Source of the DNA: an uncultured bacterium
GTDB taxonomy: Bacteria; Joyebacterota; Joyebacteria; Joyebacterales; Joyebacteraceae
Assembly: GCA_964597945.1 (NCBI GenBank)
Contig: CAZRAD010000003.1
Coordinates: 1-46,680, forward strand
Direction: 5' to 3'
DNA length: 46,680 nucleotides
The position numbers and the translations under genes were made by a program. The notes beneath the pieces are model-generated. The model saw only the letters and a list, made by a program, of their open reading frames with translations. It was not told where the DNA came from and did not search any database. Below are positions 2,085-41,423 of the stretch, one piece after another (positions within the stretch are counted from its first letter, which is position 1; each line of letters opens with the position of its first letter).

Positions 2085-2114
2085 ATTATATCACCATCAG
2101 GCGGGTGTTGTCAA
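2085..2114 (-). promoter_or_regulatory. Sigma70-type promoter, TTGACA-N18-TATAAT
   Basis: On the minus strand, TTGACA lies at 2114-2109 and TATAAT at 2090-2085, separated by an 18-nt spacer. It sits in a 466-bp intergenic region, about 290 nt upstream of the ATG at 1791. Confidence 0.45.
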
Positions 2115-2257: not shown

Positions 2258-4642
2258 CTACAGCCGCTCGAGGAGCTGCTCGAGCGCAGGCACCGGCTCG
2301 CCCCCGAGCTCCCGATAAGCCCTATAGTGATTGACAGCCAGATTCGGATTTCCCTCATTGAAGTAATATGTCAGCGCGAGATTGAGGTGGGCCGGCGGGA
2401 AGTCCGGGTTGATGCGAATCTCCGCTTCATATTCGTATATCGCGCTGTCGTGGTCCTGCATCTCGCTCAGGATGACACCCATTGAGAAATGACCGTGCTC
2501 GACGAACGGGTCCAGTTCGAGCGCCTGTGCCATGAGTTCCCGGGCCTCCTCGATCAGTCCCATGTCCCGCTTCACCAGCGCTATCCGACGCAGCGGCTCG
2601 CCGGACTCGGGTGCCATGCGAGCCGCCATCTCGAGCTCCGCCAGGGCGTCGACGACCCGGCCGGCCCGCAGAAGCGTATCAGCGGCAGCCATCGCTCTCA
2701 CCGAGACCTCCGGGACCTCGGCGCGCTGTGGACGGTCGATGAGATTCAGGTAGAACGACGCCTCCGCGCGCTCTCTCCGCTCCCCCTCCACCGCCAGCGC
2801 CGCCGTGAGCGAAGCCCGAGCCTCGTCGAACCTCCCCCAGCGATAGAGAGCCACGCCCCTCTCCTTGAGCGCGAGAGCGTTCCCGGGGTCCGCCGCGAGG
2901 ATGGTGTCGAGTTGCGCGACGGCGCCCTCGAAGTCTCCGATGGACTCGAGCGCCATGGCCAGGTTCACACGACCGGTCACGTAGCCCGGATCGAGTCGGA
3001 CGGATGCGCGGAAGGCCTCGATGGCCTGCTCGGGCCGGTCCGCCTCGACGAGCATCGAACCAAGATTGAGGTAGCTCTTCGGATACTCGGGGTCGAGCTC
3101 GATGGAGCGACGACACTCCTCGATCGCCCGAGCCGTGTCGCCCCGTTCTCCGTAGATGATACCGAGACGGAAGTGCGACTGCGCGAAACCCCGGGCGCGA
3201 TCGACACCGTACCAGTTGACATTGACCACGAGCAGAAGAAGAACCGCCCCGACCGTGATCCACGCCATCGCCCTCCAGGCGCGGTCTCGAACGAGCCGTA
3301 TCAACTCGAGGACAGCGAAGCCCGAACCGACCGCAAGCACGGGAACGACCGGGAGTCGGTACCTCGCGACAACGAAGAACGCGACCACGGTGGCCATGTA
3401 GCTGATGACGAACAGCGCGAGGAGACGCGCCTGTCTGCGCCGCCAGGCCAGCACGATGCCGATGAGTCCGAGCGGCGCGACCAGCGCGAATCCCGGAAGC
3501 GGCAGCGCCAGAAGTCCCGAGTATCGCTTCTGGAAGTAGTAGTTCTCAAGCTGGGGCAGTTCGTAAGAACTCATGGCGAAGGAGAGTTTCCTCACGAGCA
3601 GCTTCATCCACTCGGACGGGTGGCTCGCGATGTAGGCGCGCGATCTGCCGTACCAGAACGCGGAGACCTCCGACGGCTTGAGGTCACGGCCGACTGCGGC
3701 CTCGGCGATGAGTTCACCGTCCGGGTCGTCCACGATGTCCAGTCCGACGGGTTTGACATATCCGCCGGTCGAGATCTCGCTGTTGCCGATGTAGAAGTTG
3801 AGTCCGCCGTTCGATGTGACCATCACGAAATCGTCGGCGACCACGAGGTTTCTCACGGTCACCGGAACGACCACGAGGATCACACCGAGCGCGAAGAGAG
3901 CCACGGCCCGGCCACGACCCGTCCGGTTTCTGCGCCACGCGAACCAGATCCAGAGCGCCGCCACCGGCACGAAAGCCAGCGCAGTGGCCTTGCCGATGCC
4001 GGCGAGGCCCAATGAGACGCCGGCGAGCGCGTAGAGCCAGTGCGTTCCCCGGTCGTCGGCGCGGATGAGAAGGTACAGGCAGAGTGAGTTCAGGAAGACA
4101 AGGAGCGGCGTGATGAGGATGGAACCGTCATAGAACACGAGGGCGCCATAGAGCGCGGTGACAAGGCCGGCGATGAGACCAACCCGGTTGCCGAACACGC
4201 GGTGTCCGATCAGGTAGGCAAGCGCAGCAGTCGCCGAGCCGATACCGGCCTGAATGACACGTACGAGCAGCAGGTCACGACCGAGAATTCGGTAGATGGC
4301 CGAGAGGAAGTACGGATAGAGCGGCGACATGAAGAACGCCTCGCGCTCTGACGTTCCGGATGCGATTCGCCGCGCCCACGCGTCATAGAACTTCGCGTCA
4401 AGCCCGAGCGTCTCGAAGAACGGCGTCTGTCTGATCTGGAATACGTAGACAAGCCTCACGACGAGTGCGACAACGAATATGGCCAAAGGCAAGAACCAGA
4501 GGGAGCGCGTGAAACCGTATGCCTTCGGTTGCGGTTCTCCCGGCGATGTCTGCGTCGGCCCTGCCGCCCCCGCTGTCCTCGGCGTACGAGCCGTCTTCGG
4601 CGTCCGATCGTGCTGCTTCCGCTTTCGCCCTCGTCTGGTCAT
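2258..4642 (-). CDS. GT-C fold (PMT_2/GT39-like) membrane glycosyltransferase fused to C-terminal TPR repeats
   Basis: 794 aa. The N-terminus is basic. It is followed by many hydrophobic segments and an early loop, FFETLGLDAKFYDAWARRIASG, typical of PMT/ArnT-like enzymes. The C-terminal ~320 aa hold repeated TPR-like units (e.g. AIEECRRSIELDPEYPKSYLNLGSML, AIEAFRASVRLDPGYVTGRVNLAMAL). An AAGGA RBS lies upstream of the ATG. Confidence 0.8.
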   Translation of the reverse strand: MTRRGRKRKQHDRTPKTARTPRTAGAAGPTQTSPGEPQPKAYGFTRSLWFLPLAIFVVALVVRLVYVFQIRQTPFFETLGLDAKFYDAWARRIASGTSEREAFFMSPLYPYFLSAIYRILGRDLLLVRVIQAGIGSATAALAYLIGHRVFGNRVGLIAGLVTALYGALVFYDGSILITPLLVFLNSLCLYLLIRADDRGTHWLYALAGVSLGLAGIGKATALAFVPVAALWIWFAWRRNRTGRGRAVALFALGVILVVVPVTVRNLVVADDFVMVTSNGGLNFYIGNSEISTGGYVKPVGLDIVDDPDGELIAEAAVGRDLKPSEVSAFWYGRSRAYIASHPSEWMKLLVRKLSFAMSSYELPQLENYYFQKRYSGLLALPLPGFALVAPLGLIGIVLAWRRRQARLLALFVISYMATVVAFFVVARYRLPVVPVLAVGSGFAVLELIRLVRDRAWRAMAWITVGAVLLLLVVNVNWYGVDRARGFAQSHFRLGIIYGERGDTARAIEECRRSIELDPEYPKSYLNLGSMLVEADRPEQAIEAFRASVRLDPGYVTGRVNLAMALESIGDFEGAVAQLDTILAADPGNALALKERGVALYRWGRFDEARASLTAALAVEGERRERAEASFYLNLIDRPQRAEVPEVSVRAMAAADTLLRAGRVVDALAELEMAARMAPESGEPLRRIALVKRDMGLIEEARELMAQALELDPFVEHGHFSMGVILSEMQDHDSAIYEYEAEIRINPDFPPAHLNLALTYYFNEGNPNLAVNHYRAYRELGGEPVPALEQLLERL

Positions 4643-4683
4643 CGTCCGTCCTTCGGAGTTGTGTGCTCACCCGCCAGGAACCG

Positions 4684-6036
4684 TCAGCTGATGTAGCCGA
4701 GCGTCTTCAGCCGCTCGATAACCTCTTCGTCGACAGGTGAGGGAATCGGCTCCGAATCACCATTCCGCTCCCCGGTCTCGTGCGTCTCGATGAAACTGAC
4801 CGGATGCTGTTCAAGCCACCCCGGCTCGAACGCCGCATCAAGCAGCTGTCCGTCCATGTCCTCACCGAGCGGGATGTCGAGCGTCGCAAGCACGGTCGGT
4901 GCCACGTCGAGAATCGAAGCTCCGTCTATCCGTGTACCCTGCGCAACGCCCGGACCGGCGATGATGACGATGCCGTCCTCGCGATGCATGCTGACGCCCA
5001 CGGCCAGCTCGCCCTCGAAACCCGGGTAGCCGCTGTGCCCGGCGAACCCGTGGTCGGAACAGAGCACGACCGTCGTCTGCGCACTCCGGTGCGCAAGTAC
5101 CTCGCCGACGATCCCATCGATACGCTCATAGTAGTTCTCAATGAGAGGAGCGAATGCGGACACCATCTCAGGCTGAAGCTCCTCCGGCCACGTGTCCGGC
5201 TCCATGTAGCGCCAGTACATGTGGCAGCTTGTGTCGAGTCCGCGGAAGTAAACGGCCGCGAGGTCGGTCGGGACGTCTCCGAAAAACCGATGCGCCATGG
5301 CGAGCGTCGTCTGGTCGGACGCGTAGATCCTCCTGAACTCCCTGACCGCGGCGGCCGCTTCCTCGCTCTGCGGAAGGTCTCCACCGAGGAACGCGGCCAC
5401 GGTCTCATCACTGACATCCGCGTCGTCGACACGAAGCGAGACCGCGTCATCCCAGATGCCGGGCGGGTGAACGCTCTGACGCTTGCGCGCGAGCATCTCC
5501 TCATCACCGACGTCGAGCAGTTTGTCCCGGAGGAGCGTATGGAAACGTGACGAGATCATGTAGCCGCTCACGGGCTCGGCGGGCCACGTCACGAGCCAGC
5601 CGATGACGCCGGTCGAGTGACCGGCATCGTTGAGGATCTGCCACATCGCCCTCGCGGTTCTCATGTTGCTGCTCGTAGGGGTCGGATTCGTCGTGGTGCC
5701 GCGGTCGACCAGAAATCCCGCGATGCCGTGCTTGTCCTCGCGCTTCCCGGTCGCGATGCTCGTCCAGATGCTGGGAGAGAGATACGGATAGAGAGAGTGA
5801 AGAACGCCGGAGCTGCCTTCCTCCATCAGCCCGGCGATGTTGGGAAGCCGGCCCTCGTCGGCCAGCCGCTGGACGCGGCCCCAGTCCAGCCCGTCCACGC
5901 CGATGAACAGCACGCGCGGTCCGGGTGGCTCCTCGACTTCCGGCTGACATCCGAATAGAGGGAGTCCCAGGACCACCGAGAGTGCGGCGACGAGCAGTGC
6001 GGCTCCTTTGATCCATCGGCCGGAAACAGATCTCAT
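4684..6036 (-). CDS. Alkaline-phosphatase-superfamily (NPP/phosphodiesterase-type) lipoprotein, paralog 1
   Basis: 450 aa. Lipobox LFGC. Motifs FIGVDGLDW, GRLPNIAGL, SPSIWTSIATGK..HGI, GVIGWLVTWPAEPVSGY, RGLDTSCHMYW, LCSDHGF and DVAPTVLA. The C-terminal tail is PSPVDEEVIERLKTLGYIS. Its ATG overlaps the stop of paralog 2 (ATGA). Confidence 0.85.
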   Translation of the reverse strand: MRSVSGRWIKGAALLVAALSVVLGLPLFGCQPEVEEPPGPRVLFIGVDGLDWGRVQRLADEGRLPNIAGLMEEGSSGVLHSLYPYLSPSIWTSIATGKREDKHGIAGFLVDRGTTTNPTPTSSNMRTARAMWQILNDAGHSTGVIGWLVTWPAEPVSGYMISSRFHTLLRDKLLDVGDEEMLARKRQSVHPPGIWDDAVSLRVDDADVSDETVAAFLGGDLPQSEEAAAAVREFRRIYASDQTTLAMAHRFFGDVPTDLAAVYFRGLDTSCHMYWRYMEPDTWPEELQPEMVSAFAPLIENYYERIDGIVGEVLAHRSAQTTVVLCSDHGFAGHSGYPGFEGELAVGVSMHREDGIVIIAGPGVAQGTRIDGASILDVAPTVLATLDIPLGEDMDGQLLDAAFEPGWLEQHPVSFIETHETGERNGDSEPIPSPVDEEVIERLKTLGYIS

Positions 6037-7265
6037 CGAAGCACCTCATCGAGAACGCGTCCGTCAAGCTCGATGGCCGGCGTGATCCCGGCCGCCTGCA
6101 TCAGCGTCGGCGCGAAGTCGAACAGCTCGGATTCGGATTCGTCGACCCGCGCGCCCGGGCGGATCGACGGCCCCTTCATGATCCACACGCCGCGATCGCT
6201 GTGCATGTCGGTTCCGAGCCGCGGGTTGCCAACCCAATCCAGCTCAACACCCTTGTATCCATGGTCTGCAACAACTGCGATCGTCGCGTCGTCGGTCGCA
6301 AGATCGAGGATCTCGCCGATGATCTCGTCAAGATACTCGTAGTACCGCTCGATGACGATGCCCAGCGTCTCCGCCTGCACGAGCATCTCCTCGCGAGCCT
6401 CGTCGGTCAGTGTGACGCCACCGAGCACGCGCTCCGGCTCCATGTAGTGCCAGAAGCGCTGCGATATTCCGTCGAGACCGAGGAAGTGCACCATCAGCGA
6501 CTCAACGCCCGGATCGGCCGTGATCCGAAGCGCGATCGCCGTGTGTGACGCATCACCGGCATACGAGGTCGCGAGCGTGGTGTAGTTCTGCCCGACGAGC
6601 GCTTCGTAGGGGTTCCTCGTGTCGAGATCGATGAACCGACCAAGGTCGACGCGCCGAACCGAGGACGGACTCGCGAACATCGCGTCGAGCACCGTCTGCT
6701 GGCTCTCCGGATAGATTCTCCCTGAGACGTCCCCGTTGTGCATCTGGTCGAGAATGACCCGGCTGTGTGAGCCGACCATGACACCATTCACCGCTTCGAC
6801 CGGCCATGCTCCCGGCCATCCGATGACACCGACCGTGCGTCCACTGCTCGAAAGCAGCGTCCAGATCGTATCGACCGTCCGATGTTCCGGTACCAGCGGG
6901 CGCGGGACGACCTCCCCGCGAGGTGAGATACGCGTTCCGCCGATGCCCTGGTTCTCAGGTCGCATGCCGGTCACAAGGCTGGTCCAGGGGATCTCCGAAT
7001 CGATACCGCGTTCCAGACTCGCGAATCGTCCGACCGCGCCCTCGGCCATCAGCGCGCTGATATTCGGAAGCCCACCGTCGGCCGAGAACCGCTCCACGAG
7101 CTCCGGTTCGAATCCCTCGATACCGATGACGACCAGCGAGAGGGAACCCCCGCGCGGCGCCGAGGCGTCCTGCGCGGTCTCGCCGTCACGCTTTGACATG
7201 AACACGACAGCGGCGGCCACCAGGGCGACAATGATGAACAGAATCAGTACGTGGTCTCGCTTCAT
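6033..7265 (-). CDS. AlkP-superfamily paralog 2, divergent: membrane-anchored, altered metal-site residues, no C-terminal tail
   Basis: 410 aa. The N-terminal hydrophobic anchor has no Cys lipobox. Motif variants are VIGIEGFEP (D to E), LGLDGISQRFW (H to Q) and VVADHGY. It ends ...DGRVLDEVLR without the LGYIE tail. Confidence 0.8.
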   Translation of the reverse strand: MKRDHVLILFIIVALVAAAVVFMSKRDGETAQDASAPRGGSLSLVVIGIEGFEPELVERFSADGGLPNISALMAEGAVGRFASLERGIDSEIPWTSLVTGMRPENQGIGGTRISPRGEVVPRPLVPEHRTVDTIWTLLSSSGRTVGVIGWPGAWPVEAVNGVMVGSHSRVILDQMHNGDVSGRIYPESQQTVLDAMFASPSSVRRVDLGRFIDLDTRNPYEALVGQNYTTLATSYAGDASHTAIALRITADPGVESLMVHFLGLDGISQRFWHYMEPERVLGGVTLTDEAREEMLVQAETLGIVIERYYEYLDEIIGEILDLATDDATIAVVADHGYKGVELDWVGNPRLGTDMHSDRGVWIMKGPSIRPGARVDESESELFDFAPTLMQAAGITPAIELDGRVLDEVLR

Positions 7266-7274
7266 CGTTCTCCC

Positions 7275-8600
7275 CTACTCGATGTACCCGAGTGAACGGA
7301 GCCGCTCGAGCACCTCGTCATCGACGGGTGACTCGATCGGAGCCGCGTCAGTACGCTCGGTGCGTCCGTAGCTTTCGATTGTGGCAACCGGATTGGCGGC
7401 GACGAACTCGTCCGTGAAGATCTCGGAGAGTACCCTCCCGGGCATGTCGTCAGCGACCGGGGCCGCGCTCATGGCGAGAATCGTCGGCGCAACATCGAAG
7501 ACCGAGGCGTTCTCGATCGTGACTCCCCGCTTCACGCCGGGGCCGCTGACGATGAGCACCCCTTTGAGCGCGTGCTGGTCCTCACCGTACCACGGCGCGT
7601 GCTCTCCCCACTTCCCGGGACCTCGGAATCCGTGATCCGAGCAGATGACGACGGTCGAGTTCAGCGGGAGCAGTTCGAGCAGCTTCCCGATCTCCGAATC
7701 GGTGTAGCGGTAGTACTCATCAATGAGCCCCGCGAGTTCGACGGCCTGATCGGCCAGCATCGCGGTCCCGGGCTTCGCGGGATCGACCGGCGGACGCGTA
7801 TCCTCGTACGCGTGGATCCAGAACCTGTGACAGACCTCGTCCACGCCTCTCGTATAGACACAGGCGACATCCGGGACGTCATCAGAGAACAGGAATCGCG
7901 CCACTGCGTACGTGCTCTCATCACCCGCGAGCGCACGACGCAGTCCCTCCTCGTAGTGGTCGGTCAGTACCGAGAGACCCTCCACGCCCCCGCTCGCGAA
8001 ACGCCCCAGCTGCTCGGGTGACAGCGCCAGCTCGTCGGTCACGTGCGGGGCGATGGCGTCGTCCAGGCCATCGGGCCACGAGATGCCCCGGCCCTTCCCC
8101 GACTGACGGAAACGGTCGTGATACTGCACGTGCTGAGAGACCATGTACCCGTTGACGGGCCACGGCGGCCAGGTGACCAGCCAGCCGATGACCCCGACCG
8201 TCTTGCCTCGGTCGCCGAGGATGTCCCAGAATGCGGGGGCCTTCCACATGTTGCTCGAGTAGTGCGAGTACGAGTCGCGGCCGTGCGGATTGCCGCTGAT
8301 GACGAACCCTCCCACGCCGTGGACGTCGGGGTCGAGACCGGTGGCGATGGTCGTCCAGATGACGGGCGACTTCCGCCGCGGGTCCAGCGAACCCAGCTCT
8401 CCGGATGCCCCACGCTCTATGAGGCCGGAGATGTTCGGAAGCTCGCCCGCCTCGAGCAGCGGCTCGATGATGCTCCATTCCGCGCCATCGATCCCGATGA
8501 CGACGATGGGGCCGTCCACACCGGTCGGCGGCGCCGGCTCCGCGCACGCGCCGAGTATGACGGCGAGAAGCCCGAGGGCGATGATCGTACGAAGCCTCAT
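7275..8600 (-). CDS. AlkP-superfamily lipoprotein, paralog 3
   Basis: I place the start at the ATG at 8600 (MRLRTIIALGLLAVILGACAEP, lipobox LGAC), which is preceded by GGAGAA. The ORF-track start at 8678 would add an Arg/His-rich extension. Motifs VIGIDGAEW, SPVIWTTIATG, ICSDHGF. Tail APIESPVDDEVLERLRSLGYIE. Confidence 0.85.
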   Translation of the reverse strand: MRLRTIIALGLLAVILGACAEPAPPTGVDGPIVVIGIDGAEWSIIEPLLEAGELPNISGLIERGASGELGSLDPRRKSPVIWTTIATGLDPDVHGVGGFVISGNPHGRDSYSHYSSNMWKAPAFWDILGDRGKTVGVIGWLVTWPPWPVNGYMVSQHVQYHDRFRQSGKGRGISWPDGLDDAIAPHVTDELALSPEQLGRFASGGVEGLSVLTDHYEEGLRRALAGDESTYAVARFLFSDDVPDVACVYTRGVDEVCHRFWIHAYEDTRPPVDPAKPGTAMLADQAVELAGLIDEYYRYTDSEIGKLLELLPLNSTVVICSDHGFRGPGKWGEHAPWYGEDQHALKGVLIVSGPGVKRGVTIENASVFDVAPTILAMSAAPVADDMPGRVLSEIFTDEFVAANPVATIESYGRTERTDAAPIESPVDDEVLERLRSLGYIE

Positions 8601-8617
8601 ATGTTCTCCATGGTGGT

Positions 8618-8638
8618 CCGCGTCGTGCGTCGACGCGG
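8618..8638 (-). promoter_or_regulatory. Intercistronic GC hairpin (8-bp stem, 5-nt loop) just upstream of the paralog 3 RBS
   Basis: On the minus strand, CCGCGTCG-ACGCA-CGACGCGG is followed by ACCACCATGGAGAACATATG. There is no U-tract, so it is not a canonical terminator. Confidence 0.3.
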
Positions 8639-8690
8639 TTCTCCTCAGTCCTGTGACAGTGCGCCGACGTCTTGCCACGCTGGTGCCGCG

Positions 8691-10025
8691 CTACTCGATG
8701 TACCCAAGCGAGCGAAGGCGCTCGCGCACCTCGTCGTCGACCGGTGACTCGATCGGCTCGGCGTCATCCGTGGTCACGCCCTCTTCATACGAGAGGATCG
8801 CCGTGACCGGATGCCGCTCAAGGAACTCCGGCTCGATCGCCTCGGTGAGAACGCGACCGTCCATGTCGTCCGCGACCGGAAGTCCGAGGAGCGCGAGGAG
8901 CGTCGGCGTGACATCGAGCACACCCGGCGAGTCCAGCTGTGTCCCCGGAACGATGTCTCGACCCCAGAGAGCGATGACGCCGGTCGGGTCGTGCATCGCG
9001 ATACCCCAGTGGTAGACACCGTCGCGGTTCTTCGGACCGGAATGACCGTGGTCCGATGTCAGAACGACCGTCGTGCGGTCATCCGCGAGCGCGATGAACT
9101 CACCAACAACCTCGTCCATGTATTCGTAGTACCGCTCGACGACGTCAGCGAGATACGCGGTCCCCGGCTCCGTGCCCTCGGGCCATGACTCCGGGAACGC
9201 ATCCACCCAGAACTGGTGGCTCGGACCGTCGACGCCGCGGAGATAGAGCGCGAAGAAGTTCGTCGGTCGCTCCTCGAACAGTCGAAGCGCCGAGCGCCGA
9301 ACGGTCTCGTCAGTCGCGATCGCCGTCTTGAGTGAGCGCAATCGAGCCAGCTCCGCGTCCGTGTCTCCCGGGTCTCCGGTGAGAAACGCGCGGACCCTCT
9401 CGTCAGAGATGTCGTCTGCGGTCAGACGCAACTCCGCAAGCTCGCCCGCCAGCTCCTCCGGCCACGTGTATCGGCTCCTCTCCCCGTCCGCTCCGGGTCT
9501 CCATCCGTAGTTGAAGTAGGATGAGACGAGATAGCCGTTGACCTCCTCTGCCGGCCAGGTCGCGAGCCACCCGATGACGCCGACGGAGAGACCGCGCTCT
9601 CCAAGGATGCTCCAGAGAGCCTTCACGCGTCGGACGTTCGAAGTCATCGGGACCGGTTCGGCCCCGGCGTGGAGCTGCTTCGCGAACCCGGTGATGCCAT
9701 GCTTGTCCGGGGTCTTTCCGGTAGCGATCGACGTCCAGATCACCGGCGACTCCAGGATGTCGAGCGATCGGACCTCTCCCCAGGCGCCCTCACTGAGAAC
9801 GCGCGCGAAGTTCGGGAGCCTCCCCGCCTCGAGCATCGGCCCCATGATGTCCCATTCAAGACCATCGACACCGATGATCATCACCTTCCGCTCCGACGGC
9901 TTCATCTCGCTCGATCCACACGATGTGAGGAGCACGACCGCCGCGCCGAGCGCGATCGCGAGGAGAACGGTCAGCGCCACCCCGGCACGGTTCGATCTGC
10001 ATCGACAGGTGCTGAGTCTCATCAT
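8691..10025 (-). CDS. AlkP-superfamily lipoprotein, paralog 4
   Basis: 444 aa. Lipobox LTSC. Motifs IIGVDGLEW, SPVIWTSIATGKTPDKHGI, LTSDHGH. Tail EPIESPVDDEVRERLRSLGYIE. Its ATG overlaps the stop of paralog 5 (ATGA at 10025-10022). Confidence 0.85.
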   Translation of the reverse strand: MMRLSTCRCRSNRAGVALTVLLAIALGAAVVLLTSCGSSEMKPSERKVMIIGVDGLEWDIMGPMLEAGRLPNFARVLSEGAWGEVRSLDILESPVIWTSIATGKTPDKHGITGFAKQLHAGAEPVPMTSNVRRVKALWSILGERGLSVGVIGWLATWPAEEVNGYLVSSYFNYGWRPGADGERSRYTWPEELAGELAELRLTADDISDERVRAFLTGDPGDTDAELARLRSLKTAIATDETVRRSALRLFEERPTNFFALYLRGVDGPSHQFWVDAFPESWPEGTEPGTAYLADVVERYYEYMDEVVGEFIALADDRTTVVLTSDHGHSGPKNRDGVYHWGIAMHDPTGVIALWGRDIVPGTQLDSPGVLDVTPTLLALLGLPVADDMDGRVLTEAIEPEFLERHPVTAILSYEEGVTTDDAEPIESPVDDEVRERLRSLGYIE

Positions 10026-11284
10026 CTCGTCACTCCAGGCTCATCGGTCGTCTCGTAGGTCGGGATCACGCGCACGGGGTGCGCACGAAGGAAGTCATCC
10101 TCGAAGGCATCGCGCATGACGGCCCCGTCCATGTCGTCGCCGACAGGCAGACCGAAGAGCGCGAGGATCGTCGGCGTGATGTCGCGGACGCTGTGCTCGG
10201 CTATCGTCACGCCGCTCCGGACACCGTCCCCGCTCAGCGCGAAGACCCCGATCGGTCCGTGGTCGTTGATCCCTCCGCGACGGCGGCCGGGTCGCGGACC
10301 CTCAAAGCCGTGGTCCGAACAGAGCATGACCGTCGCGTCGTCGCCGAACTGTTCGATGAGCTCTCCGACCAGGGCGTCGGCGTGTTCGTAGTAGCGCTCC
10401 ATCGTCTCGCCGAAGACGCGTATCTCGGTCTCCGGCACGTCGACCTCCACCTCCTCCGGGAAGCTCGCGGGCCAGAAGCGGTGGCTCATCGAGTCGGTCC
10501 CGCGGAGATAGACGACGCTGACATCGGTCGGTCGCTGTCGCATCAGATGCTTCGCCACCGCCATGAACGTCGCGTCGCCGGCGTAGTGGTCCTTGAGCTG
10601 AGAGATGTTGCCCTCGATCTCGCTGATCGCGCGCATCTCGACGAACATGCGTTCGACATCGAGCCGCTGCGCCTCCTCGCCCGTCATCGCGTTGTCGAGG
10701 TCGTAGAGGCGCTCCACCTCTTCATCCGGAATGGTCTCGCTCAGGACGCGGAGCGGGGCCACCTCGGCCGCGAGTTCGTCGGGATAGGTCAGACCATCGG
10801 TACGCCTGTCCTCGCGCGGGCGATAGCGGAAGTAGTCGGTGACCATCGTCCCGTTGACGGGCTCGGCGGGCCAACTGACGAGCCAGCCGATGACGGTCAC
10901 GGTGAAGCCGTGCTCTCCGAGGATGTCCCAGAACATCCGAGCCGTCCTCACGTTGCTCGTAAGAAGCTGTTTCGATGTCGGATCAATGTAGTCGGTGATG
11001 CCATGCTTCTCCGGGAGCTTGCCGGTGCCGATAGTCGTCCAGATCGTGGGCGACTTCTGCTTCGGTTCGAGCGAACGGAGCCTGCACGAGACACCGGACT
11101 CCATCAGCGCAGCGATGTTCGGCAGCCGGCCCTGCTCGATGAGCGGATCGACGATCGACCACTCCGCACCGTCAAGTCCGATGAGAAGGAAGCGTCGGTC
11201 GACGGTCCCGTCGCCGGATCCGCACCCGGACGCGAGCAGAATCGCGGCCAGCGCGACAAGTGCGATCAGTTTTCCCGGTCTCAC
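10022..11284 (-). CDS. AlkP-superfamily lipoprotein, paralog 5 (no C-terminal tail)
   Basis: I place the start at the in-frame GTG at 11284 (V RPGKLIALVALAAILLASGCGSG, lipobox ASGC). It is preceded by AGGGGAGGGA and lies 16 nt after the paralog 6 stop. The ORF-track start at 11443 would overlap paralog 6 by 143 nt. Motifs LIGLDGAEW, SPTIWTTIGTGK, LCSDHGF. It ends ...TYETTDEPGVTR. Confidence 0.8.
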   Translation of the reverse strand: MRPGKLIALVALAAILLASGCGSGDGTVDRRFLLIGLDGAEWSIVDPLIEQGRLPNIAALMESGVSCRLRSLEPKQKSPTIWTTIGTGKLPEKHGITDYIDPTSKQLLTSNVRTARMFWDILGEHGFTVTVIGWLVSWPAEPVNGTMVTDYFRYRPREDRRTDGLTYPDELAAEVAPLRVLSETIPDEEVERLYDLDNAMTGEEAQRLDVERMFVEMRAISEIEGNISQLKDHYAGDATFMAVAKHLMRQRPTDVSVVYLRGTDSMSHRFWPASFPEEVEVDVPETEIRVFGETMERYYEHADALVGELIEQFGDDATVMLCSDHGFEGPRPGRRRGGINDHGPIGVFALSGDGVRSGVTIAEHSVRDITPTILALFGLPVGDDMDGAVMRDAFEDDFLRAHPVRVIPTYETTDEPGVTR

Positions 11285-11300
11285 TGGAGGTCCCTCCCCT

Positions 11301-12620
11301 CTATTCGATGTATCCGAGGGAACGGAGCTTCTCGCGGATCGCGTCGTCGACCTCTTCGGTCTCGGGCGCCTCTCCGGAGGCGGCGGGCTCTCGCTCGTAG
11401 GTATCCACATAGGTAACTGGGTTTGCAGCCTCGAAGTCGTCATCGAGGATCTCGGTCAAAACAAATCCATCCATGTCGCGCGCGACCGGCTCGCCGAGCA
11501 GCGCCAGGACGGTCGGGGTAATGTCGAACACGCTCGCGTCGAGCGTCTCGTTCGAAGGCTCGATGCCGGGGCCGGCCGCGATGAGCACGCCGGTCTGCCG
11601 GTGCATCCAGATCCCGAGCAGCAGTCCCCGCGGCGACCTGTACGGCCCGCGGAACCCGTGGTCCGAACAGATGATGACGGTCGAATCCTCATCCATACGA
11701 TCGATGATCTGGCCGACGGCGCTGTCGATGTACTCGTAGTAGCGCGGGATGAGCTCGCTGTACGTTCGGATCATCTCCGGGGTCATGTACATGTCGACCG
11801 ATGTGGTGTCCCACTGCCCCCAGTATCGGTGACAGGTGACATCCAGTCCCTGGAAGTAGGTCGCGAAGAAGTCGGGCTGATCGTGTGTTTCGAGCATGTG
11901 GTTCGTAACCTGGAGGATGGTCTTGTCCATCGCGTGGATGCCGCGGATCGATTCCCGACCGTCGCTGACGGTGTGGTCGTCGGTCGTCCTCCACGAGTCG
12001 CCGACAAGGAACGGCGCGAGTTCGTCGTCGGGCAATGTGCTGACGGGCTGGCAGAAGGGCGCCAGCTCCTCCGCAAGTTCCGGCGGGGTCGTCACCTCCG
12101 GGATGTCCGGATAGCCGTCCTCGGCGGTGAATGTGATGCGCTCCGTAATGAGGAACCCGTTGACCGGGTAGGCGGGCCACGAGAGCCACCAGTTGATGAC
12201 GCCGACGGTGCGCCCGGCGTCACCGAGCATCTGCCAGACCGCCAGCGCCTTCCAGCCGCGCGAGTTGTAGAGCGCCTGCTCGCCCGTCTGCTCCTGCAGG
12301 AAGTCGCTGATCCCATGCTTACGCTGTGTCTTGCCGGTTGCGATACAGGTCCAGATGATCGGAGACTTCATCTCGGGACCGATCGAGCGGAGATTGGCCC
12401 TGACGCCGCGGTCGATGAGCGACCGGATGTTCGGGAGCTTCCCCGCTTCGAGAAGCGGGTCGACGATCTGCCAGTCCATGCCGTCGATGCCGATGAGGAC
12501 GACCTTGTGGTCGCCAGTTCCAGCGCCACATCCGCCGAGACCGACGAGAAGCGTCAGCGCAAGGGCCGCCACGACCAGAGCCGCACGGGTTGTGATCCAT
12601 CTGTTCGTTCGATGTTCCAT
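11301..12620 (-). CDS. AlkP-superfamily lipoprotein, paralog 6
   Basis: 439 aa. Lipobox LGGC. Motifs LIGIDGMDW, SPIIWTCIATGK, QGLDVTCHRYW, ICSDHGF. Tail EEVDDAIREKLRSLGYIE. A GAGGA RBS is present, and the gene begins 68 nt downstream of the glyS stop. Confidence 0.85.
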   Translation of the reverse strand: MEHRTNRWITTRAALVVAALALTLLVGLGGCGAGTGDHKVVLIGIDGMDWQIVDPLLEAGKLPNIRSLIDRGVRANLRSIGPEMKSPIIWTCIATGKTQRKHGISDFLQEQTGEQALYNSRGWKALAVWQMLGDAGRTVGVINWWLSWPAYPVNGFLITERITFTAEDGYPDIPEVTTPPELAEELAPFCQPVSTLPDDELAPFLVGDSWRTTDDHTVSDGRESIRGIHAMDKTILQVTNHMLETHDQPDFFATYFQGLDVTCHRYWGQWDTTSVDMYMTPEMIRTYSELIPRYYEYIDSAVGQIIDRMDEDSTVIICSDHGFRGPYRSPRGLLLGIWMHRQTGVLIAAGPGIEPSNETLDASVFDITPTVLALLGEPVARDMDGFVLTEILDDDFEAANPVTYVDTYEREPAASGEAPETEEVDDAIREKLRSLGYIE

Positions 12621-12688
12621 TCGATTGCTCGTCCTCTGTTCGCCTGCTGCGTGAAGGCCCTGCCCAACTCCTGCGTTTCGACCCCGCG

Positions 12689-14779
12689 CTACTCCTGCAC
12701 TTCGCCCTCGAGCACGACGCGCGAGAAGTCGGCGATTCGCATGAACAGCGAGCGCACCTCCGAGAGCAGGCCGAGCCTGACCGCGCGAAGCCTCTCGTCT
12801 TCGACCATCACCATCACGGCGTCGAAGAACTCGTCGATCGGACGCCGCAGACCAAGCAGGCTCCGCACGGCATCGTCGAGATCGTCCGACGCAACGGCGG
12901 CATCAACACTCGACTCCGCCTCCGCGCGCGCCTTCTCGAGCGCTATCGAAGCCGGCTCGACCAGAGCGGATGCATCAACCCTCACGGCCGGGCTGCCCTT
13001 GAGGATGTTCATCACGCGCCGCGAGCCGACCACGAGACCGGTGAAGTCGTCCGCCTCCCGGAAGTGCGAGAGCGCGACGATGCGCTTCCTCGCTCCGGGC
13101 AGGTCATCCGACGACGCCGCGAGGACCGCGTCGACCAGATCGTACGCGTATCCCTCATCCATGAAAACGTTGCGCGCGCGCTGGCGCACGAAGTCGAGCA
13201 CGCCGTCGAGCGTCGTCGCCTTCGAGTCGCCGGTGAGCTCGAACGCGTCCGCGGCCGCCTCGGCCAGTCCCCGGACCGGCACGCTGAGGTCCCGCTCCAG
13301 AAGGATGCGGATGAGACCGATGGCCTGGCGTCTCAGCGCGTACGGATCCTGCGACCCCGACGGGATCAATCCCGCGGAGAAACAGCCAACGATGGAGTCG
13401 AGCCTGTCCGCAATACTCAAGATGACGCCGGCCTCCGAGGATGGCAAGTCGTCACCGGCGAACCGCGGCATATAGTGCTCGTGGATGGCCGCGGCTACCG
13501 GCGCGTTCTCGCCCGATGCCAGGGCGTATTCGCGCCCCATGACCCCCTGGAGCTCGGTGAACTCCTTCCCGTCCTTCACCATCTCGGTGACGAGATCGGC
13601 CTTCGCGAGCCTCGCAGCCCGGACAGCCGTATCGGTCTCCGATGAGGAGATTCGCTCGCCGATCATCCGCGCGAGCCTCTCGAGCCGTTCCGTCTTCTCG
13701 TAGAGCGAACCCAGCCCCTCGAGCCAGACGACGCTCTTGAGGCTCTCAACCTTGTCCTCGAGATTCGCGCGGGTGTCCTCGTGCCAGTAGAACGCCGCAT
13801 CGTCGAGTCGAGAGACCAGCACTCGCTCGTTTCCCTCTCGCACGGCATCATGGCTCTCGGCCGGGACGTTGGCAACGCAGAGGAAGTTCGGAAGCAGCTT
13901 ACCGTCCTCGTCTTCGACGGCGAAATACCGCTGGTGACTCTTCATCGCGACAACGATGACGTCGCGCGGGAGCTCGAGGAAGCGGTCTGCGAACCGCCCG
14001 GCGAACACGGTCGGATACTCAACGAGATAGGTCACCTCGTCGAGGAGTGACTCGTTCACGACGAGCCGCCCCCCGCACTCGCCCGCGACCCGCTGAGTCT
14101 CCTCGAGAATGCGGACGCGACGTGCCGCCGGGTCGGCGAGCACGTAGTTGCTCTCGAGCACGGCGAGGTAGTCGTCCACATCCCTGACGCGGTGCGGCCC
14201 CGGCGACCAATTGCGATGCCCGCGCGTCTCGTTCCCCGCCTTGACGCCTGCGAACTCCATGTCGAGCACGTCGCCGCCGAGCAGCGCGACAAGCCAGCGT
14301 ACGGGGCGCGCGAACCGCTGGTCCGGCCCCCAGCGCATCGTTTTCGGGAAGCTCAGCGATGCCGCGGCGGCGCTGAGGATCTCGGGCAGCACCTCGAACG
14401 ACGAACGCCCCTTGTCGACCACGCGTACGTGCACGTACTCGCCCTTGCCCGTGTCTCGGACCTCAAGGTCCTCGACGGCTACACCCTGGGACTTCGCGAA
14501 GCCGAGCCCGGCCTTCGTCGGGACGCCCTCGTCGTCGAACGCGACCTTCGCCGGTGGACCGACGACCTCACGCTCCAGGTCTTCCTGCATGTCTGCAACA
14601 TCCGCCACCCCGACGGCCATCCGCCGCGGGGTCATGAACGTCCTCACCTCGCCGTGCTGGAGCCGCGCCGCGCTCAAACCGTCTTCGACGGCCGCGCGGA
14701 GCTGCTCGATCGCCGGAGGGACGTACGAGGCCGGGATCTCCTCAGCGCCGATCTCGAAGAGCAGTTCCTTCCCCATCAC
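12689..14779 (-). CDS. glyS: Glycine--tRNA ligase beta subunit
   Basis: ~695 aa, beginning (M)[26 protein letters not shown], with length and layout typical of GlyS. The start is either the GTG at 14779 or the ATG at 14776; both overlap the glyQ TGA (GTGATG). Confidence 0.93.
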
Positions 14780-15771
14780 GCACCCCCTCTGCTCTTGGCA
14801 CCGGACTTGCCGTCGTTCTTGCCGCCGCCCTTGCCACCCTTCGTGCCGCCCTTCTCTTCCTCGGCCAGCAGACGGGTCCGCTCGTCCTCCGGCAGGAGTG
14901 GATACCCCAGCTCCCTGCGTTGATCGATGCAGAGGATCGCCGCCTTCCGCGCGAGCTTCCGCACGCGCGCGATGTACCCGGTCCGCTCCGAGACACTGAT
15001 CGCGCCGCGCGCATCAAGCACGTTGAAGGTGTGCGAACACTTGAGCACGTAATCGTATCCCGGCGCCAGAAGCCCGGCGGAGAGAAGCCGGTCGGCCTCG
15101 GTCTCGAACTTGTCGAAGAGCTCGCGATGAAGCGGGATGTCGGCCTCTTCGAAATTGAACTTGGAGAACTCGATCTCGTACTGCTTCGTCAGCTCGCCGA
15201 ACATCACATCCGGCGCCCACTTCATATCGAAGAAGCTGTCGACCCCCTGGAGGAACGTCGCGATACGACCAAGACCGTAGGTGATCTCCGACGATATGGG
15301 ATCGAGTTCGAGACCTCCGGCCTGCTGGAAGTACGTGAACTGCGTGATCTCCATCCCGTCGATCCACACTTCCCATCCGAGACCCGCGGCGCCCAGCGTC
15401 GGAGACTCCCAGTCATCCTCGACGAGACGGAAGTCGTGCTTCTTCCGGTCGATTCCGAGCGCCTCGAGACTCTGGAAGTAGAGGTCGAGTACATCATCGG
15501 GCGCCGGCTTAAGAAGCACCTGGTACTGGAGGAACTGCTGCATACGGATCGGATTCTCGCCGTACCGACCATCCTTCGGCCGGCGCGACGGCTCGACGTA
15601 GGCTGCGCGCCATGGCTCCGGTCCGAGACATCTGAGGAACGTCGCGGGATTGAACGTCCCGGCACCGACCTCCGAGTTGTACGGCTGCACGATCACGCAG
15701 CCGTAGTCCGCCCAGAACCCCTGCAATCGCAGGATGATATCCTGGAACGTGAGCGCCTTCGCTTCAGCCAT
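14776..15771 (-). CDS. glyQ: Glycine--tRNA ligase alpha subunit, with a Lys/Gly-rich C-terminal tail
   Basis: I place the start at the ATG at 15771 ([39 protein letters not shown]), which aligns with the canonical GlyQ N-terminus and has AAGGGGA upstream. The ORF-track TTG at 15858 is an extension into the recO stop region. The C-terminus is ...[28 protein letters not shown]. Confidence 0.92.
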
Positions 15772-15831
15772 GATCCAGTCAGTCCCCTTGTCGCGTGTTG
15801 TCGGTGCGGCGAACGCTGTCGCCTGTCGTGA

Positions 15832-15870
15832 ATTCTGCTCCTCAATGCTGCTCCTCAACTCGGCTCCTCG
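15832..15870 (-). repeat. 13-bp tandem repeat x3 spanning the recO stop codon
   Basis: The plus strand reads attctgctcctca / atgctgctcctca / actcggctcctcg. On the minus strand the copies are CGAGGAGCCGAGT, TGAGGAGCAGCAT and TGAGGAGCAGAAT, each containing a GAGGAG. Confidence 0.7.
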
Positions 15871-38119: not shown

Positions 38120-38148
38120 GGGCACATCCTCCTCACTCACGCCGTAGG

Positions 38149-38669: not shown

Positions 38670-38712
38670 GCGCTTCTCCCCAAGGGGCCCAAAGGGGAAC
38701 CTCTCACAACTT

Positions 38713-41301: not shown

Positions 41302-41423
41302 ACTACCCCCCTCCAGACGACCGGGCAACCCACGCGGGTGAACCTGCTCGATGTGTGGCGCAACCTGCCCTGCGGGTGTATACTGCCAGCCTGAAGCTCG
41401 AACACGCTAACAGGAGAAGCAGC

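Follow-up and report, generated by a model that had tools for sequence, protein, structure and literature searches.

The 46,680-nt window (the whole stretch of DNA that was analysed) carries on its minus strand six tandem PF01663 genes at positions 4684-12620, here called P1 to P6, followed downstream by a gene for a PMT_2 GT-C/TPR glycosyltransferase, here called GT. A first-pass annotation had described six consecutive minus-strand genes and a 794-aa glycosyltransferase, and an ORF check found the open reading frames at exactly these positions. The features of the locus are, in the direction of transcription:

26760-28847, minus strand: protein of 695 aa with five TM helices and a PF00884 AlkP-superfamily domain, possibly associated
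14776-15858, minus strand: glyQ, upstream and on the same strand as the array
12689-14779, minus strand: glyS, directly upstream of P1
11301-12620, minus strand: P1, predicted PF01663 lipoprotein, 439 aa
10022-11284, minus strand: P2, predicted PF01663 lipoprotein, ~420 aa, counted from GTG 11284
8691-10025, minus strand: P3, predicted PF01663 lipoprotein, 444 aa
7275-8600, minus strand: P4, predicted PF01663 lipoprotein, 441 aa, counted from ATG 8600
6033-7265, minus strand: P5, degenerate PF01663 paralog, 410 aa
4684-6036, minus strand: P6, predicted PF01663 lipoprotein, 450 aa
2258-4642, minus strand: GT, PMT_2 GT-C/TPR glycosyltransferase, 794 aa
2085-2114, minus strand: perfect sigma-70-type promoter (TTGACA-18-TATAAT with TG), 144 nt past the GT stop

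For both P2 and P4 the longest ORF runs too far in the 5' direction. The most likely start of P2 is GTG 11284, which is preceded by the putative ribosome-binding site GGGGAGGG, and its longest ORF (to 11443; 143-nt overlap with P1) is probably not used. For P4 the most likely start is ATG 8600. With the corrected starts the spacings from P1 to P6 are 16 nt, a 4-nt overlap (P2 stop and P3 start), 90 nt, 9 nt and a 4-nt overlap (P5 stop and P6 start), and GT follows P6 after 41 nt. The spacing values reported earlier, from 4-nt overlaps to 90 nt and 41 nt before GT, were thus reproduced. The gap of 68 nt between glyS and P1 contains no promoter- or terminator-like site, and in relatives the glyS stop and the P1 start overlap or lie 2 nt apart. 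The gaps are short, genes overlap in relatives and no promoter- or terminator-like sites intervene, from which we infer co-transcription of the array and GT; glyQ-glyS probably belong to the same transcription unit. The promoter at 2085-2114 marks the next transcription unit and thereby the 3' boundary of the module.

In the Pfam search the scores of all six paralogs exceeded the gathering threshold of PF01663, and their E-values range from 1e-18 to 5e-30 (4.9e-30 for P1, 1.8e-27 for P2, 1.3e-18 for P5). By these scores the match is far beyond chance. The other paralogs share 27-39% identity with P1, in agreement with the earlier description of mutually alignable AlkP-superfamily proteins. The first-pass annotation had allowed that they might turn out to be ordinary PhoD/PhoA-type phosphatases; profile searches gave no matches to PhoA, PhoD or PhoX among the paralogs, which are therefore not of the PhoA/PhoD type by this measure. 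Structural matches were obtained at the superfamily level only (TM ~0.5, 14-17% identity), and a large helical insert is present at approximately residues 160-250. The AlkP family to which these paralogs belong is large and uncharacterised. The AF2 model of P1 has a pLDDT of 91.8.

The five lipobox signal peptides noted before are carried by P1 (LGGC), P2 (ASGC), P3 (LTSC), P4 (LGAC) and P6 (LFGC). The active sites were compared in 14-20 Eisenbacterial orthologs per paralog group. P1 and P2 contain the full catalytic set, and in the orthologs of P1, P2, P4 and P6 the residues D46, S86, D260, H264, D320, H321 and H340 are kept wherever the site was aligned (20/20 for P1). The P3 orthologs have the same seven residues in 16/17 at each site. 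Judging from the lipoboxes and these alignments, P1-P4 and P6 are lipoproteins in which the two-metal site is complete and the Ser invariant. A C-terminal LGY helix is conserved in four of the six paralogs, namely P1 (...LRSLGYIE), P3 and P4 (both LGYIE) and P6 (...LKTLGYIS); it is absent from P2 and from 17 of its 18 orthologs. In the P4 ortholog group the otherwise conserved K97 and K101 are variable. P4 and P6 are each gone from some relatives. The lipid-anchor linkers of the Eisenbacterial paralogs comprise only 11-15 residues, first strand included, and are poor in Ser/Thr (8-12%) after the lipid-modified Cys.

P5 deviates from this pattern. It has an N-terminal TM anchor and neither a lipobox nor the C-terminal tail, and its motifs read IGIEG, DSEIPWT, NQGI, GISQRFW and VADHGY. 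Among its orthologs position 46 is E or Q instead of D, S86 is lost in 15/17, H102 is changed to Q and Q replaces H264 in 17/17. P5 was found in every complete array. By its residues, P5 is a membrane-anchored pseudoenzyme whose degenerate state has been kept across the phylum. The motif list given earlier as shared does not hold for all six, as P5 departs from it at the motifs above and P3 reads TSDHGH in place of CSDHGF. The array does not encode six equivalent phosphodiesterases but five predicted enzymes and one conserved pseudoenzyme. The intact site in five paralogs together with the coordinated loss in P5 fits non-redundant roles or a hetero-complex.

GT matched PMT_2 with 46 bits (cutoff 26, E 7.8e-12), and many TPR models matched residues 487-770. 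Its AF2 model (pLDDT 88) exhibits 18 helices past the last TM helix, corresponding to ~9 TPR-like pairs. The earlier assignment as a PMT_2 GT-C protein with TPRs was thus borne out by the HMM searches that had been proposed, and the TPR part also by the structure prediction. Hydrophobic-segment analysis suggests a basic, cytoplasmic N-terminus and ~11 TM helices, which would place the TPR solenoid (482-794) in the periplasm. Together with the lipoprotein signal peptides of the paralogs, this predicted topology agrees with the periplasm-facing orientation proposed before. The first outside loop contains the conserved D82/Y86/D87, and a large outside loop at 270-384 is conserved. The TM7-TM8 loop shows strong conservation. 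The acidic residues of the first outside loop and the TM7-TM8 loop were counted in favor of a competent enzyme. No match to a solved GT-C structure was obtained for the GT-C domain. In TMTCs, 11 TM helices are combined with a long outside loop between TM7 and TM8 and a non-cytoplasmic C-terminal TPR region (PMC7801869). GT belongs with the eukaryotic TMTC1-4 and actinobacterial Pmt to the GT-C/PMT clan, but it has no MIR domain and showed no match to the TMTC signature DUF1736 in the Pfam search, and TMTC and Pmt genes are not known to be linked to AlkP-fold genes. Thus, the TMTC likeness proposed earlier stands for the architecture only.

The window comes from Candidatus Eisenbacteria, and within this phylum the GT-C/TPR gene directly follows the array in 14/14 contigs that reach past it. 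Related arrays contain 4-6 paralogs in unchanged order, and this order and the paralog-specific features hold down to ~50% identity. The array always lies just downstream of glyQ-glyS, with glyS upstream in 17/17 related loci extending that far. The whole 25-kb region is, however, syntenic within the phylum and the array is embedded in a housekeeping string (ybeZ/ybeY/corC/mgtE/recO/glyQS), so that the linkage could reflect inherited gene order rather than function. Since within-phylum synteny alone is weak evidence, the associations in other phyla carry the argument.

Among GT-C/TPR homologs with 37-40% identity, PF01663 genes were adjacent in all six that were looked up. The array and the GT-C/TPR gene, for which an absence of linkage in relatives had been considered, are thus always linked within the phylum, and distant homologs of the latter adjoin PF01663 genes as well. 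In four of these six loci the GT-C/TPR and PF01663 genes overlap by 4 or 14 nt. Three of the six clusters have the order PF01663-GT2-YfhO-PMT_2-LPG_synthase_TM-YfhO-PMT_2/TPR-PF01663, and glyS is directly upstream in both such YfhO-containing clusters whose records reach far enough. A third lineage has the order glyQ-glyS-AlkP-metallohydrolase-PF01663-GT2-PMT_2. The 58 distant AlkP loci contained a PMT_2 GT-C in 9 cases, a GT2 in 10, an AlkP-TPR fusion in 10 and a PF00884 gene in 6. The union of these neighbours amounts to 26/58, and 32/58 had no glycosylation or TPR neighbour at all. Examples of such neighbours, which recur independently in other phyla, are PMT_2/TPR-PF00884-AlkP in a Phycisphaerae locus (L024), PMT_2-PMT_2-PF00884-AlkP (L054) and PMT_2-AlkP (L057). 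The linkage of the array to the glycosyltransferase is real and recurrent. About one third of the best 150 family representatives reach a length of 700 aa or more, and the C-terminal extensions were TPR arrays in 8/8 members tested, which links the AlkP domain with TPR function. Other members carry a Band_7 anchor or an N-terminal 5-TM domain (e.g., P0267), the latter as in membrane-anchored AlkP transferases. These membrane-tethered forms and the short linkers indicate that the enzymes act at the surface of the membrane.

In agreement with the earlier view that no system of this composition had been described, a literature search found none. The NPP of Xanthomonas, the phosphonoacetate hydrolase PhnA and the PafA of Bacteroidota share the Pfam family, the AlkP fold, the extracytoplasmic location and equivalent two-metal ligands (Asp, nucleophile, Asp-His, Asp-His, His) with the paralogs. 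However, the paralogs are just 14-17% identical to them (TM ~0.5), reach 19-28 bits against a PhnA equivalog cutoff of 407, have the nucleophile Ser in an S-P instead of a T-x-P context and add the helical insert, the LGY helix and the lipoprotein anchor. A functional analogy may exist to EptA with ArnC/ArnT or LpxE/F in lipid A modification and to LtaS with CsbB/GtcA/YfhO in the modification of teichoic acids. The logic of the systems with EptA or LtaS would be shared: a membrane-anchored AlkP-fold transferase (OpgB and BcsG are others) and a GT-C work on a single envelope polymer where the inner membrane faces outward, together with a GT2, which in our case occurs in relatives. These transferases belong to PF00884, have a TM domain and work with effectively one metal, in contrast to the two-metal PF01663 lipoproteins of the window. 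To our knowledge, the GPI pathway is the only well-known pathway that joins PF01663 enzymes (PIG-N/O/G ethanolamine-phosphate transferases) with polyprenyl-phosphate-sugar-dependent GT-Cs (PIG-M/V/B/Z mannosyltransferases, with the GT2 DPM1). It has several PF01663 paralogs of differing positional specificity, and the sister-lineage clusters contain the same three ingredients. The homology considered here is that of the shared Pfam domain. The lumenal GPI pathway differs in being eukaryotic, and PIG-N/O/G have large C-terminal TM domains.

Our preferred explanation, which we rate somewhat short of an even chance, is that the module modifies or assembles an envelope glycoconjugate and faces the periplasm. 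GT would draw a sugar from a polyprenyl-phosphate-sugar donor at the inner membrane and pass it to an acceptor chosen or positioned by the periplasmic TPR solenoid. The lipid anchors would keep the five NPP-like two-metal phosphoesterases within ~7-11 residues of the membrane, where they may act, via a phospho-serine intermediate, as hydrolases or transferases of phosphoester, phosphodiester or pyrophosphate groups. Their target could be the lipid-linked or membrane-proximal substrate of GT or its precursors, and the inactive TM-anchored P5 might be a non-catalytic binding or scaffolding subunit. Expression would probably be constitutive, along with glyQS. The explanation builds on the domain identities, the intact and degenerate sites, the lipoboxes, the gene order and the conserved, recurrent linkage; we infer the topology, the co-transcription, that the parts are coupled physically or functionally, and what kind of donor and acceptor are used. 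Among AlkP-superfamily proteins, hydrolases such as NPP, PhnA and PafA more typically have a full two-metal site than the known transferases, which leaves room for simple nutritional hydrolysis. Further points against the explanation are the 32 of 58 distant loci that lack glycosylation or TPR neighbours, the synteny of the whole region within the phylum, the structural matches confined to the superfamily level and the failure to match the GT-C domain to a solved GT-C.

Phosphorus scavenging and lipoprotein glycosylation are both weaker explanations. For scavenging, the paralogs would be periplasmic or surface phosphodiesterases, nucleotide pyrophosphatases or phosphatases of varied specificity that release phosphate or nucleosides, with the GT-C/TPR gene as a mere conserved neighbour. 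The PF01663 match with the NPP-like site, the nearest solved relatives, which are hydrolases (NPP, PhnA, sulfatases), and the 32 distant loci devoid of glycosylation neighbours agree with this. So does the precedent of PafA, a PF01663-type phosphatase made constitutively and insensitive to phosphate in the related phylum Bacteroidota (PMC8812569). But the similarity to PafA is confined to a 75-residue stretch (E 2e-5), PhoA/PhoD/PhoX matches are absent, no pst/pho genes occurred among the recurrent neighbour families annotated, and the housekeeping surroundings argue against Pho-regulated scavenging. Furthermore, with tethers this short the enzymes are kept close against the membrane, and scavenging would not account for why the pseudoenzyme is conserved and the paralog order fixed, nor for the TPR fusions and the repeated PMT_2/GT2 adjacency in unrelated phyla; we consider it unlikely. 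It is quite improbable that the lipoproteins themselves are the acceptors, recruited by the TPRs and O-glycosylated by the GT-C while paralog catalysis is a separate matter. Actinobacterial Pmt mannosylates secreted lipoproteins, PMT_2 falls within the protein O-mannosyltransferase clan, TPRs and lipoproteins are predicted to share a compartment and the LGY helix of four paralogs could serve docking. TPRs also select protein substrates in TMTC (PMC7801869) and in OGT. However, the short linkers offer few Ser/Thr residues, the tail persists beside a GT-C without TPRs in the L048 lineage, and the AlkP-TPR fusions indicate that the AlkP enzyme itself uses the TPR, which is hard to reconcile with a mere substrate. 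The distant GT-C/TPR homologs are, moreover, often accompanied by GT2, YfhO and flippase-like genes, which are typical of glycan or glycolipid pathways.

Least probable of these is a sub-case of the envelope-glycoconjugate explanation, in which polyprenyl-pyrophosphate or lipid A/LPS would lose phosphate to the paralogs on the periplasmic side and the position exposed in this way would then be glycosylated by the GT-C, similar to LpxE/LpxF with ArnT/RgtD. The tight membrane tethering, the recurrence of ArnC-like GT2, ArnT-like PMT_2 and EptA-like PF00884 neighbours in other phyla and the 5-TM PF00884 protein of the window speak for it. Yet the known enzymes for such steps are PAP2 or BacA proteins and not AlkP-fold, a TPR solenoid and six paralogs look excessive for lipid A, and the window proteins tested gave no NCBIfam match to the ArnT or EptA equivalogs.

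The window ORFs that were scanned included neither a GT2 nor a flippase gene, which speaks against the glycoconjugate explanation. The 695-aa PF00884 protein has a Thr where the formylglycine Cys is expected and ends in an array-type tail (...LREMLEALGYVQ). Given this shared tail, and given that in other phyla the family has PF00884 genes as neighbours, the protein possibly belongs to the module.

Seven closely packed genes occupy the minus strand of the window (G+C content 62-67%) from 12620 down to 2258. Six encode the tandem AlkP-superfamily paralogs P1 to P6 and the last encodes GT, a 794-aa glycosyltransferase. The array and the sites discussed with it are as follows.

11301-12620, minus strand: P1
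10022-11284, minus strand: P2; probable start GTG 11284, with GGGGAGGG 5' of it and a classical lipoprotein signal peptide
8691-10025, minus strand: P3
7275-8600, minus strand: P4; probable start ATG 8600, with GGAGAA 5' of it and a classical lipoprotein signal peptide
6033-7265, minus strand: P5
4684-6036, minus strand: P6
2258-4642, minus strand: GT
2085-2114, minus strand: perfect sigma-70 consensus promoter (TTGACA, 18 nt, TG-extended TATAAT), 144 nt past the GT stop

For P2 and P4 the longest open reading frames (473 aa and 467 aa) were rejected, since each has a better internal start with a ribosome-binding site and a signal peptide. With the revised starts P1 and P2 are 16 nt apart, P2 and P3 overlap by 4 nt, 90 nt separate P3 from P4 and 9 nt P4 from P5, P5 and P6 overlap by 4 nt, and GT begins 41 nt past P6. 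This reproduced exactly the ORF positions and gene distances of a first-pass annotation of the window, and the five lipoboxes which it had listed (LGGC, ASGC, LTSC, LGAC and LFGC) are present. On the plus strand, opposite the array and GT, lie antisense ORFs of 445-826 aa with low-complexity, Arg/Asp-rich translations. Those at 10995-13475 (826 aa), 2489-4015 and 10079-11416 were discarded as genes, the high G+C content being their most likely cause.

The array region of the window showed neither a promoter-like nor a terminator-like site. Together with the sigma-70 promoter 3' of GT this suggests that GT is the last gene of its transcription unit. Judged from the sequence, the array probably belongs to this unit too, and glyQS may do so as well. 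A scan of the whole window gave no tRNA genes and no Rfam matches; thus, there is no riboswitch or leader to account for regulation. The promoter at 2085-2114 is followed by a leader of about 290 nt, matched by no Rfam family, and by a minus-strand gene (1-1790) which starts at ATG 1790 and runs off the window. Its product begins with a signal peptide, MNSRTLVLLVLGVVLVAG..., and the counterpart in the relative L001 is an InhA-like/MAM protein.

All six paralogs (410-450 aa) scored above the gathering cutoff of 23 for the Pfam family PF01663 (Phosphodiest, "Type I phosphodiesterase/nucleotide pyrophosphatase"), with 68-106 bits and E-values of 1e-18 to 5e-30. The HMM search which the first-pass annotation had recommended thus bears out its family assignment. 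P2-P6 aligned with P1 over their full length at 27-39% identity. Conserved residues (P1 numbering) were mapped on 14-20 orthologs per paralog from related contigs. Orthologs of P1, P2, P4 and P6 retained D46, S86, D260, H264, D320, H321 and H340 wherever the site was aligned, and among P3 orthologs each of the seven sites was retained in 16 of 17. The Asp and His residues form the two-metal ligand set, with S86 as candidate nucleophile. In the AF2 model of P1, S86 opens the helix 86-95; the start of such a helix is the expected place of the AlkP-superfamily nucleophile. Profile alignments to PhnA and a sulfatase put the canonical nucleophile one residue before S86. Its invariance and its coordinated loss in P5 support S86 as the putative nucleophile.

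The P5 orthologs carry E or Q at position 46, Q at 264 (17 of 17) and Q at 102 (16 of 17), and S86 is lost in 15 of 17. P5 has one N-terminal TM helix in place of a lipobox and no C-terminal tail, the conserved LGY helix described below. Since P5 was found in every complete array, it appears to be a conserved, membrane-anchored and catalytically dead paralog and not a decaying copy. The six-fold phosphodiesterase battery suggested earlier therefore has to be revised to five enzymes and one pseudoenzyme, as P5 lacks the two-metal set. A lipobox with its Cys is present in P1, P2, P3, P4 and P6 and, depending on the group, in 50-94% of their orthologs, and in none of the 17 P5 orthologs. On the basis of these lipobox signal peptides the five proteins are predicted lipoproteins.

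The AF2 model of P1 (pLDDT 91.8, pTM 0.89) was matched by Foldseek to NPP, ENPP1 and choline sulfatase with a probability of 1.0, and the predicted fold of P1 has the AlkP alpha/beta core. Among PDB structures choline sulfatase, Xanthomonas NPP, ENPP1-3 and autotaxin were retrieved at TM scores of about 0.4-0.5 and 11-17% identity; these are superfamily-level relatives only, and no close structure was found. PDB sequence and profile searches with the paralogs returned choline sulfatase, PhnA, NPP and iPGM with E-values from 1e-10 to 1e-4 across partial regions. NCBIfam offered no equivalog-level name for any component of the module. The paralogs are not PhnA orthologs (TIGR02335), to which they scored 19-28 bits versus a cutoff of 407.55, the match being limited to the N-terminal 100 residues or so. 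Pho-regulon phosphatases of the PhoA, PhoD or PhoX type were ruled out by the lack of any Pfam or NCBIfam match at E <= 0.01; the PhoD/PhoA-type identity which would have spoken against the original proposal was consequently not found. A PafA-type phosphatase was rejected, as the family profile matched PDB 5too (E 2e-5) across 76 residues only. A formylglycine sulfatase (PF00884) was likewise rejected, the paralogs having K-S-P-I-I-W instead of the C/S-x-P-x-R motif; their Pfam sulfatase matches were incomplete, confined to the C-terminus and no higher than the cutoff. With superfamily-level matches only and no equivalog near its cutoff, P1-P6 thus represent, by sequence and model comparison, a distinct clade within PF01663. 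Its members are labelled by JGI as "predicted AlkP superfamily phosphohydrolase/phosphomutase". A full-library HMM search counted 7,588 clusters at 50% identity in the clade for E <= 1e-30; at E <= 1e-10 the count rises to 17,335.

P1-P6 also differ from the LtaS/EptA-type architecture, five TM helices plus an AlkP domain, in that their membrane attachment is limited to a lipobox or one TM helix. That architecture is present in the family relative P0267 and in the window gene at 26760-28847. Among the ArnT/EptA equivalogs of NCBIfam no ArnT match was obtained, and the YejM, MCR and LtaS models gave weak, sub-threshold matches to PF00884 proteins only.

GT matched the GT-C glycosyltransferase family PMT_2 (PF13231; GT39/GT83 clan) at residues 106-262 with 46.1 bits against a cutoff of 26.1, and many TPR models at residues 487-770. 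The PMT_2 plus TPR composition proposed beforehand was thus recovered by the Pfam search. The AF2 model (pLDDT 88) contains a TPR solenoid of 18 helices at 482-794, and 10-11 helices of the protein are hydrophobic. The topology was parsed from the AF2 helices, the hydrophobic segments and the distribution of basic residues (positive-inside). This parse suggests that the N-terminus is basic and cytoplasmic, that about 11 helices span the membrane and that the TPR domain is periplasmic. The outside loop between TM7 and TM8 (about 270-384) is large and highly conserved, with TSNGGLNFYIGN and related blocks. D82, Y86 and D87 (GT numbering) in the first outside loop are at least 90% conserved among 68 homologs and invariant in an 8-sequence domain alignment, and may have a catalytic role. 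Foldseek matches of full-length GT were dominated by the TPR half (OGT, SPY), which masked the GT-C half; with the sequence profile of the membrane domain no PDB chain was found at E <= 1.

GT had been described as TMTC-like. TMTC1-4 have 11 TM helices, an N-terminus inside, a long TM7-TM8 loop and a lumenal C-terminal TPR domain (PMC7801869). The predicted architecture of GT is similar, with 11 TM helices, the long loop and non-cytoplasmic TPR. However, the long and conserved GT loop belongs to another sequence family, and the TMTC signature DUF1736 had no Pfam match in GT at E <= 0.01. Without DUF1736 the likeness is architectural, and GT was rejected as a TMTC ortholog. The earlier description thus stands for the predicted architecture and falls for orthology.

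The closest homologs of the array and of GT were found in metagenome-assembled genomes of Candidatus Eisenbacteria. There a 25-kb string is kept, consisting of a phoH-like/ybeZ gene, a 7TM-HD protein, ybeY, two CNNM/CorC genes, DUF502, mgtE, recO, glyQ, glyS, the array and PMT_2/TPR. Eisenbacterial arrays comprise four to six PF01663 genes, and the GT-C/TPR gene directly follows in 14 of the 14 contigs reaching beyond the array. The objection that arrays in relatives might never be linked to such a gene is thereby answered. Down to about 50% identity the paralog order and the individual features are kept: P2 is tailless, P5 weak and tailless, and the others are tailed. P4 or P6 is missing in a few genomes; P1, P2, P3 and P5 are constant. 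The glyS stop and the P1 start of relatives are 2 nt apart or overlap. A 6.45-Mb chromosome labelled Candidatus Eiseniibacteriota (L066, OZ245046.1) yielded one 32%-identical homolog locus without an array; it was retrieved by peptide pattern, which is possibly incomplete.

On the GT side, homologs at 37-40% identity in sister lineages adjoin PF01663 genes in all six cases looked up, four of them with 4-nt or 14-nt overlaps at this junction. At L079 four PF01663 genes precede the GT-C/TPR gene and glyS lies directly upstream. L078, L081 and one further contig carry the order PF01663(569 aa)-GT2-YfhO-PMT_2-LPG_synthase_TM-YfhO-PMT_2/TPR-PF01663(420 aa), with glyS directly upstream in the two such clusters whose records extend there. 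These long clusters are a much larger, multi-GT-C version of the Eisenbacterial module. The shorter records L080 and L082 hold the PMT_2/TPR-PF01663 end only. All five contigs continue with a reverse-strand DUF8201/PMT_2 gene and a Tricorn/PD40-like protein, and in the sister-lineage clusters a large T9SS-tailed protein comes next where the record is long enough. Another lineage shows glyQ-glyS-AlkP-CehA-like metallohydrolase-PF01663-GT2-PMT_2, a Phycisphaerae contig PMT_2/TPR-PF00884-AlkP, and other contigs from unrelated phyla PMT_2-PMT_2-PF00884-AlkP or PMT_2-AlkP.

Among 58 loci of distant homologs (26-35% identity) a PMT_2 GT-C gene was present in 9, GT2 in 10, an AlkP-TPR fusion in 10 and PF00884 in 6, at least one of these features occurring in 26. 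Among the top 150 family representatives about one in three has a length of 700 aa or more, and the C-terminal extensions scanned in long members were TPR arrays in eight of eight cases. Elsewhere in the family a 5-TM domain at the N-terminus or a Band_7 anchor is found. The adjacency on the GT side, the occurrence in unrelated phyla and the TPR fusions therefore indicate a linkage beyond inherited synteny. Family AlkP genes repeatedly stand beside glycosylation machinery dependent on polyprenyl-phosphate sugars, and the AlkP domain appears to work habitually with a TPR module at the membrane. On two unrelated contigs (L049 9824-14615 and L032 8528-13404) the gene after an AlkP-TPR fusion of 832-835 aa encodes a DUF5916/CBM9-like protein. 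A hybrid histidine kinase (CHASE-PAS-HisKA-HATPase-REC-Hpt, about 1,450 aa) was observed beside distant AlkP homologs at 11 loci (L020, L031, L038, L042, L043, L050, L061, L070 and L073-L075).

P1, P3, P4 and P6 end in a tail of the form ...[DE]x[IV]xExL[RK][ST]LGYI[ES], which recurs on a second AlkP-superfamily protein of the window.

11301-11350, minus strand: tail-coding segment of P1
8691-8740, minus strand: tail-coding segment of P3
7275-7324, minus strand: tail-coding segment of P4
4684-4733, minus strand: tail-coding segment of P6
26760-28847, minus strand: 695-aa protein with five N-terminal TM helices and a PF00884 AlkP-superfamily domain, ending ...LREMLEALGYVQ

The ending LREMLEALGYVQ of the 695-aa protein is the same tail as in the PF01663 paralogs. 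In this protein Thr replaces the formylglycine Cys (VVTDPSHASLLTG); consequently, its sequence points to a product that is probably a phospho-transferase or hydrolase and not a sulfatase. In other phyla the tail is also seen on PF00884 proteins encoded next to family members. Among the 1,774 long ORFs of all fetched loci the motif [DE]x[LI]xxLGY[IVL]x stood at the end of 117, namely 113 family members and four PF00884 proteins, and was thus restricted to AlkP-superfamily proteins of two Pfam families (PF01663 and PF00884). In AlkP-TPR fusions it lies exactly at the domain junction (P0263). The P1 model shows the tail as a helix (422-434, pLDDT about 80) after a low-confidence linker. The tail could be a TPR-docking element, the relic of a lost TPR domain or a structural cap. 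It is present also beside a GT-C that has no TPR, in the L048 lineage, and a docking role becomes less likely for that reason.

Tentatively, we propose that the array and GT form a functionally coupled, periplasm-facing module which assembles or modifies an envelope glycoconjugate. GT would use a polyprenyl-phosphate sugar as donor and glycosylate an acceptor which its TPR domain holds in position. The five active paralogs, tethered by linkers of only about 7-11 residues past the lipid-modified Cys, would cleave or transfer phosphoester groups on the substrate of GT, or on its lipid-linked precursors, at the membrane surface, with P5 as a non-catalytic partner. By analogy, the nearest functional counterparts may be ArnC/ArnT with EptA or LpxE/F acting on lipid A, CsbB/GtcA/YfhO with LtaS acting on teichoic acids, and the lumenal GPI pathway, whose GT-C enzymes add mannoses that PF01663 paralogs decorate. 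A scheme in which a carrier lipid or lipid A is dephosphorylated and glycosylated is a sub-case of this model and, in that specific form, improbable. In a quite speculative extension, which we regard as improbable, the tail helix would act as a transferable signal by which proteins dock on TPR solenoids of the periplasm. In Eisenbacteria the TPR arm of GT would then collect several phosphoesterases together with the pseudoenzyme scaffold. Such a multi-enzyme assembly line in the periplasm would make a glycolipid or glycan with phospho-substituents and would be the bacterial equivalent of the lumenal GPI pathway.

Constitutive scavenging of organophosphate by the paralogs, with GT as an unrelated neighbour, has a precedent in PafA, a phosphate-insensitive PF01663 phosphatase from a related phylum (PMC8812569). 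We consider it unlikely, since it leaves the pseudoenzyme, the fixed gene order, the TPR fusions and the recurrent GT-C/GT2 adjacency unexplained. Another reading takes the lipoproteins themselves as glycosylation targets of GT, and the compartment and the enzyme clan fit. Yet the linkers are short and contain little Ser or Thr, and the AlkP-TPR fusions argue that the AlkP enzyme uses the TPR itself, which makes this reading rather improbable.

A literature search found nothing on the combination of AlkP array and GT-C/TPR protein in Eisenbacteria or on this AlkP family, in agreement with the first-pass annotation, which knew of no described system of this kind. Each component falls in a familiar superfamily, and known envelope-modification systems work by a logic similar to that inferred here; current understanding is not overturned. 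The family is very large and spread over many phyla, and no characterised member was found. Its recurring partners (TPR arrays, GT-C, GT2 and PF00884 enzymes, membrane anchors) lead to the testable hypothesis that the biogenesis of envelope glycoconjugates includes a step which is widespread but has gone unrecognised. The putative Eisenbacterial operon, which combines five predicted active paralogs and one pseudoenzyme with a GT-C that bears TPRs, appears to be the most elaborated version. We know of no cultured representatives of the phylum, and the operon bears on the envelope composition of its cells. If the coupling is real, envelope modification dependent on polyprenyl-phosphate sugars would gain a new enzyme class, and a new C-terminal docking motif could come to light.

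Elsewhere in the window the following genes were found.

35653-41328, minus strand: hydrogenase maturation genes hypE-like (AIRS/AIRS_C), hypD and hypF
34539-35201: CobW/HypB-like GTPase

These maturation genes and the GTPase indicate a [NiFe]-hydrogenase in the source organism.
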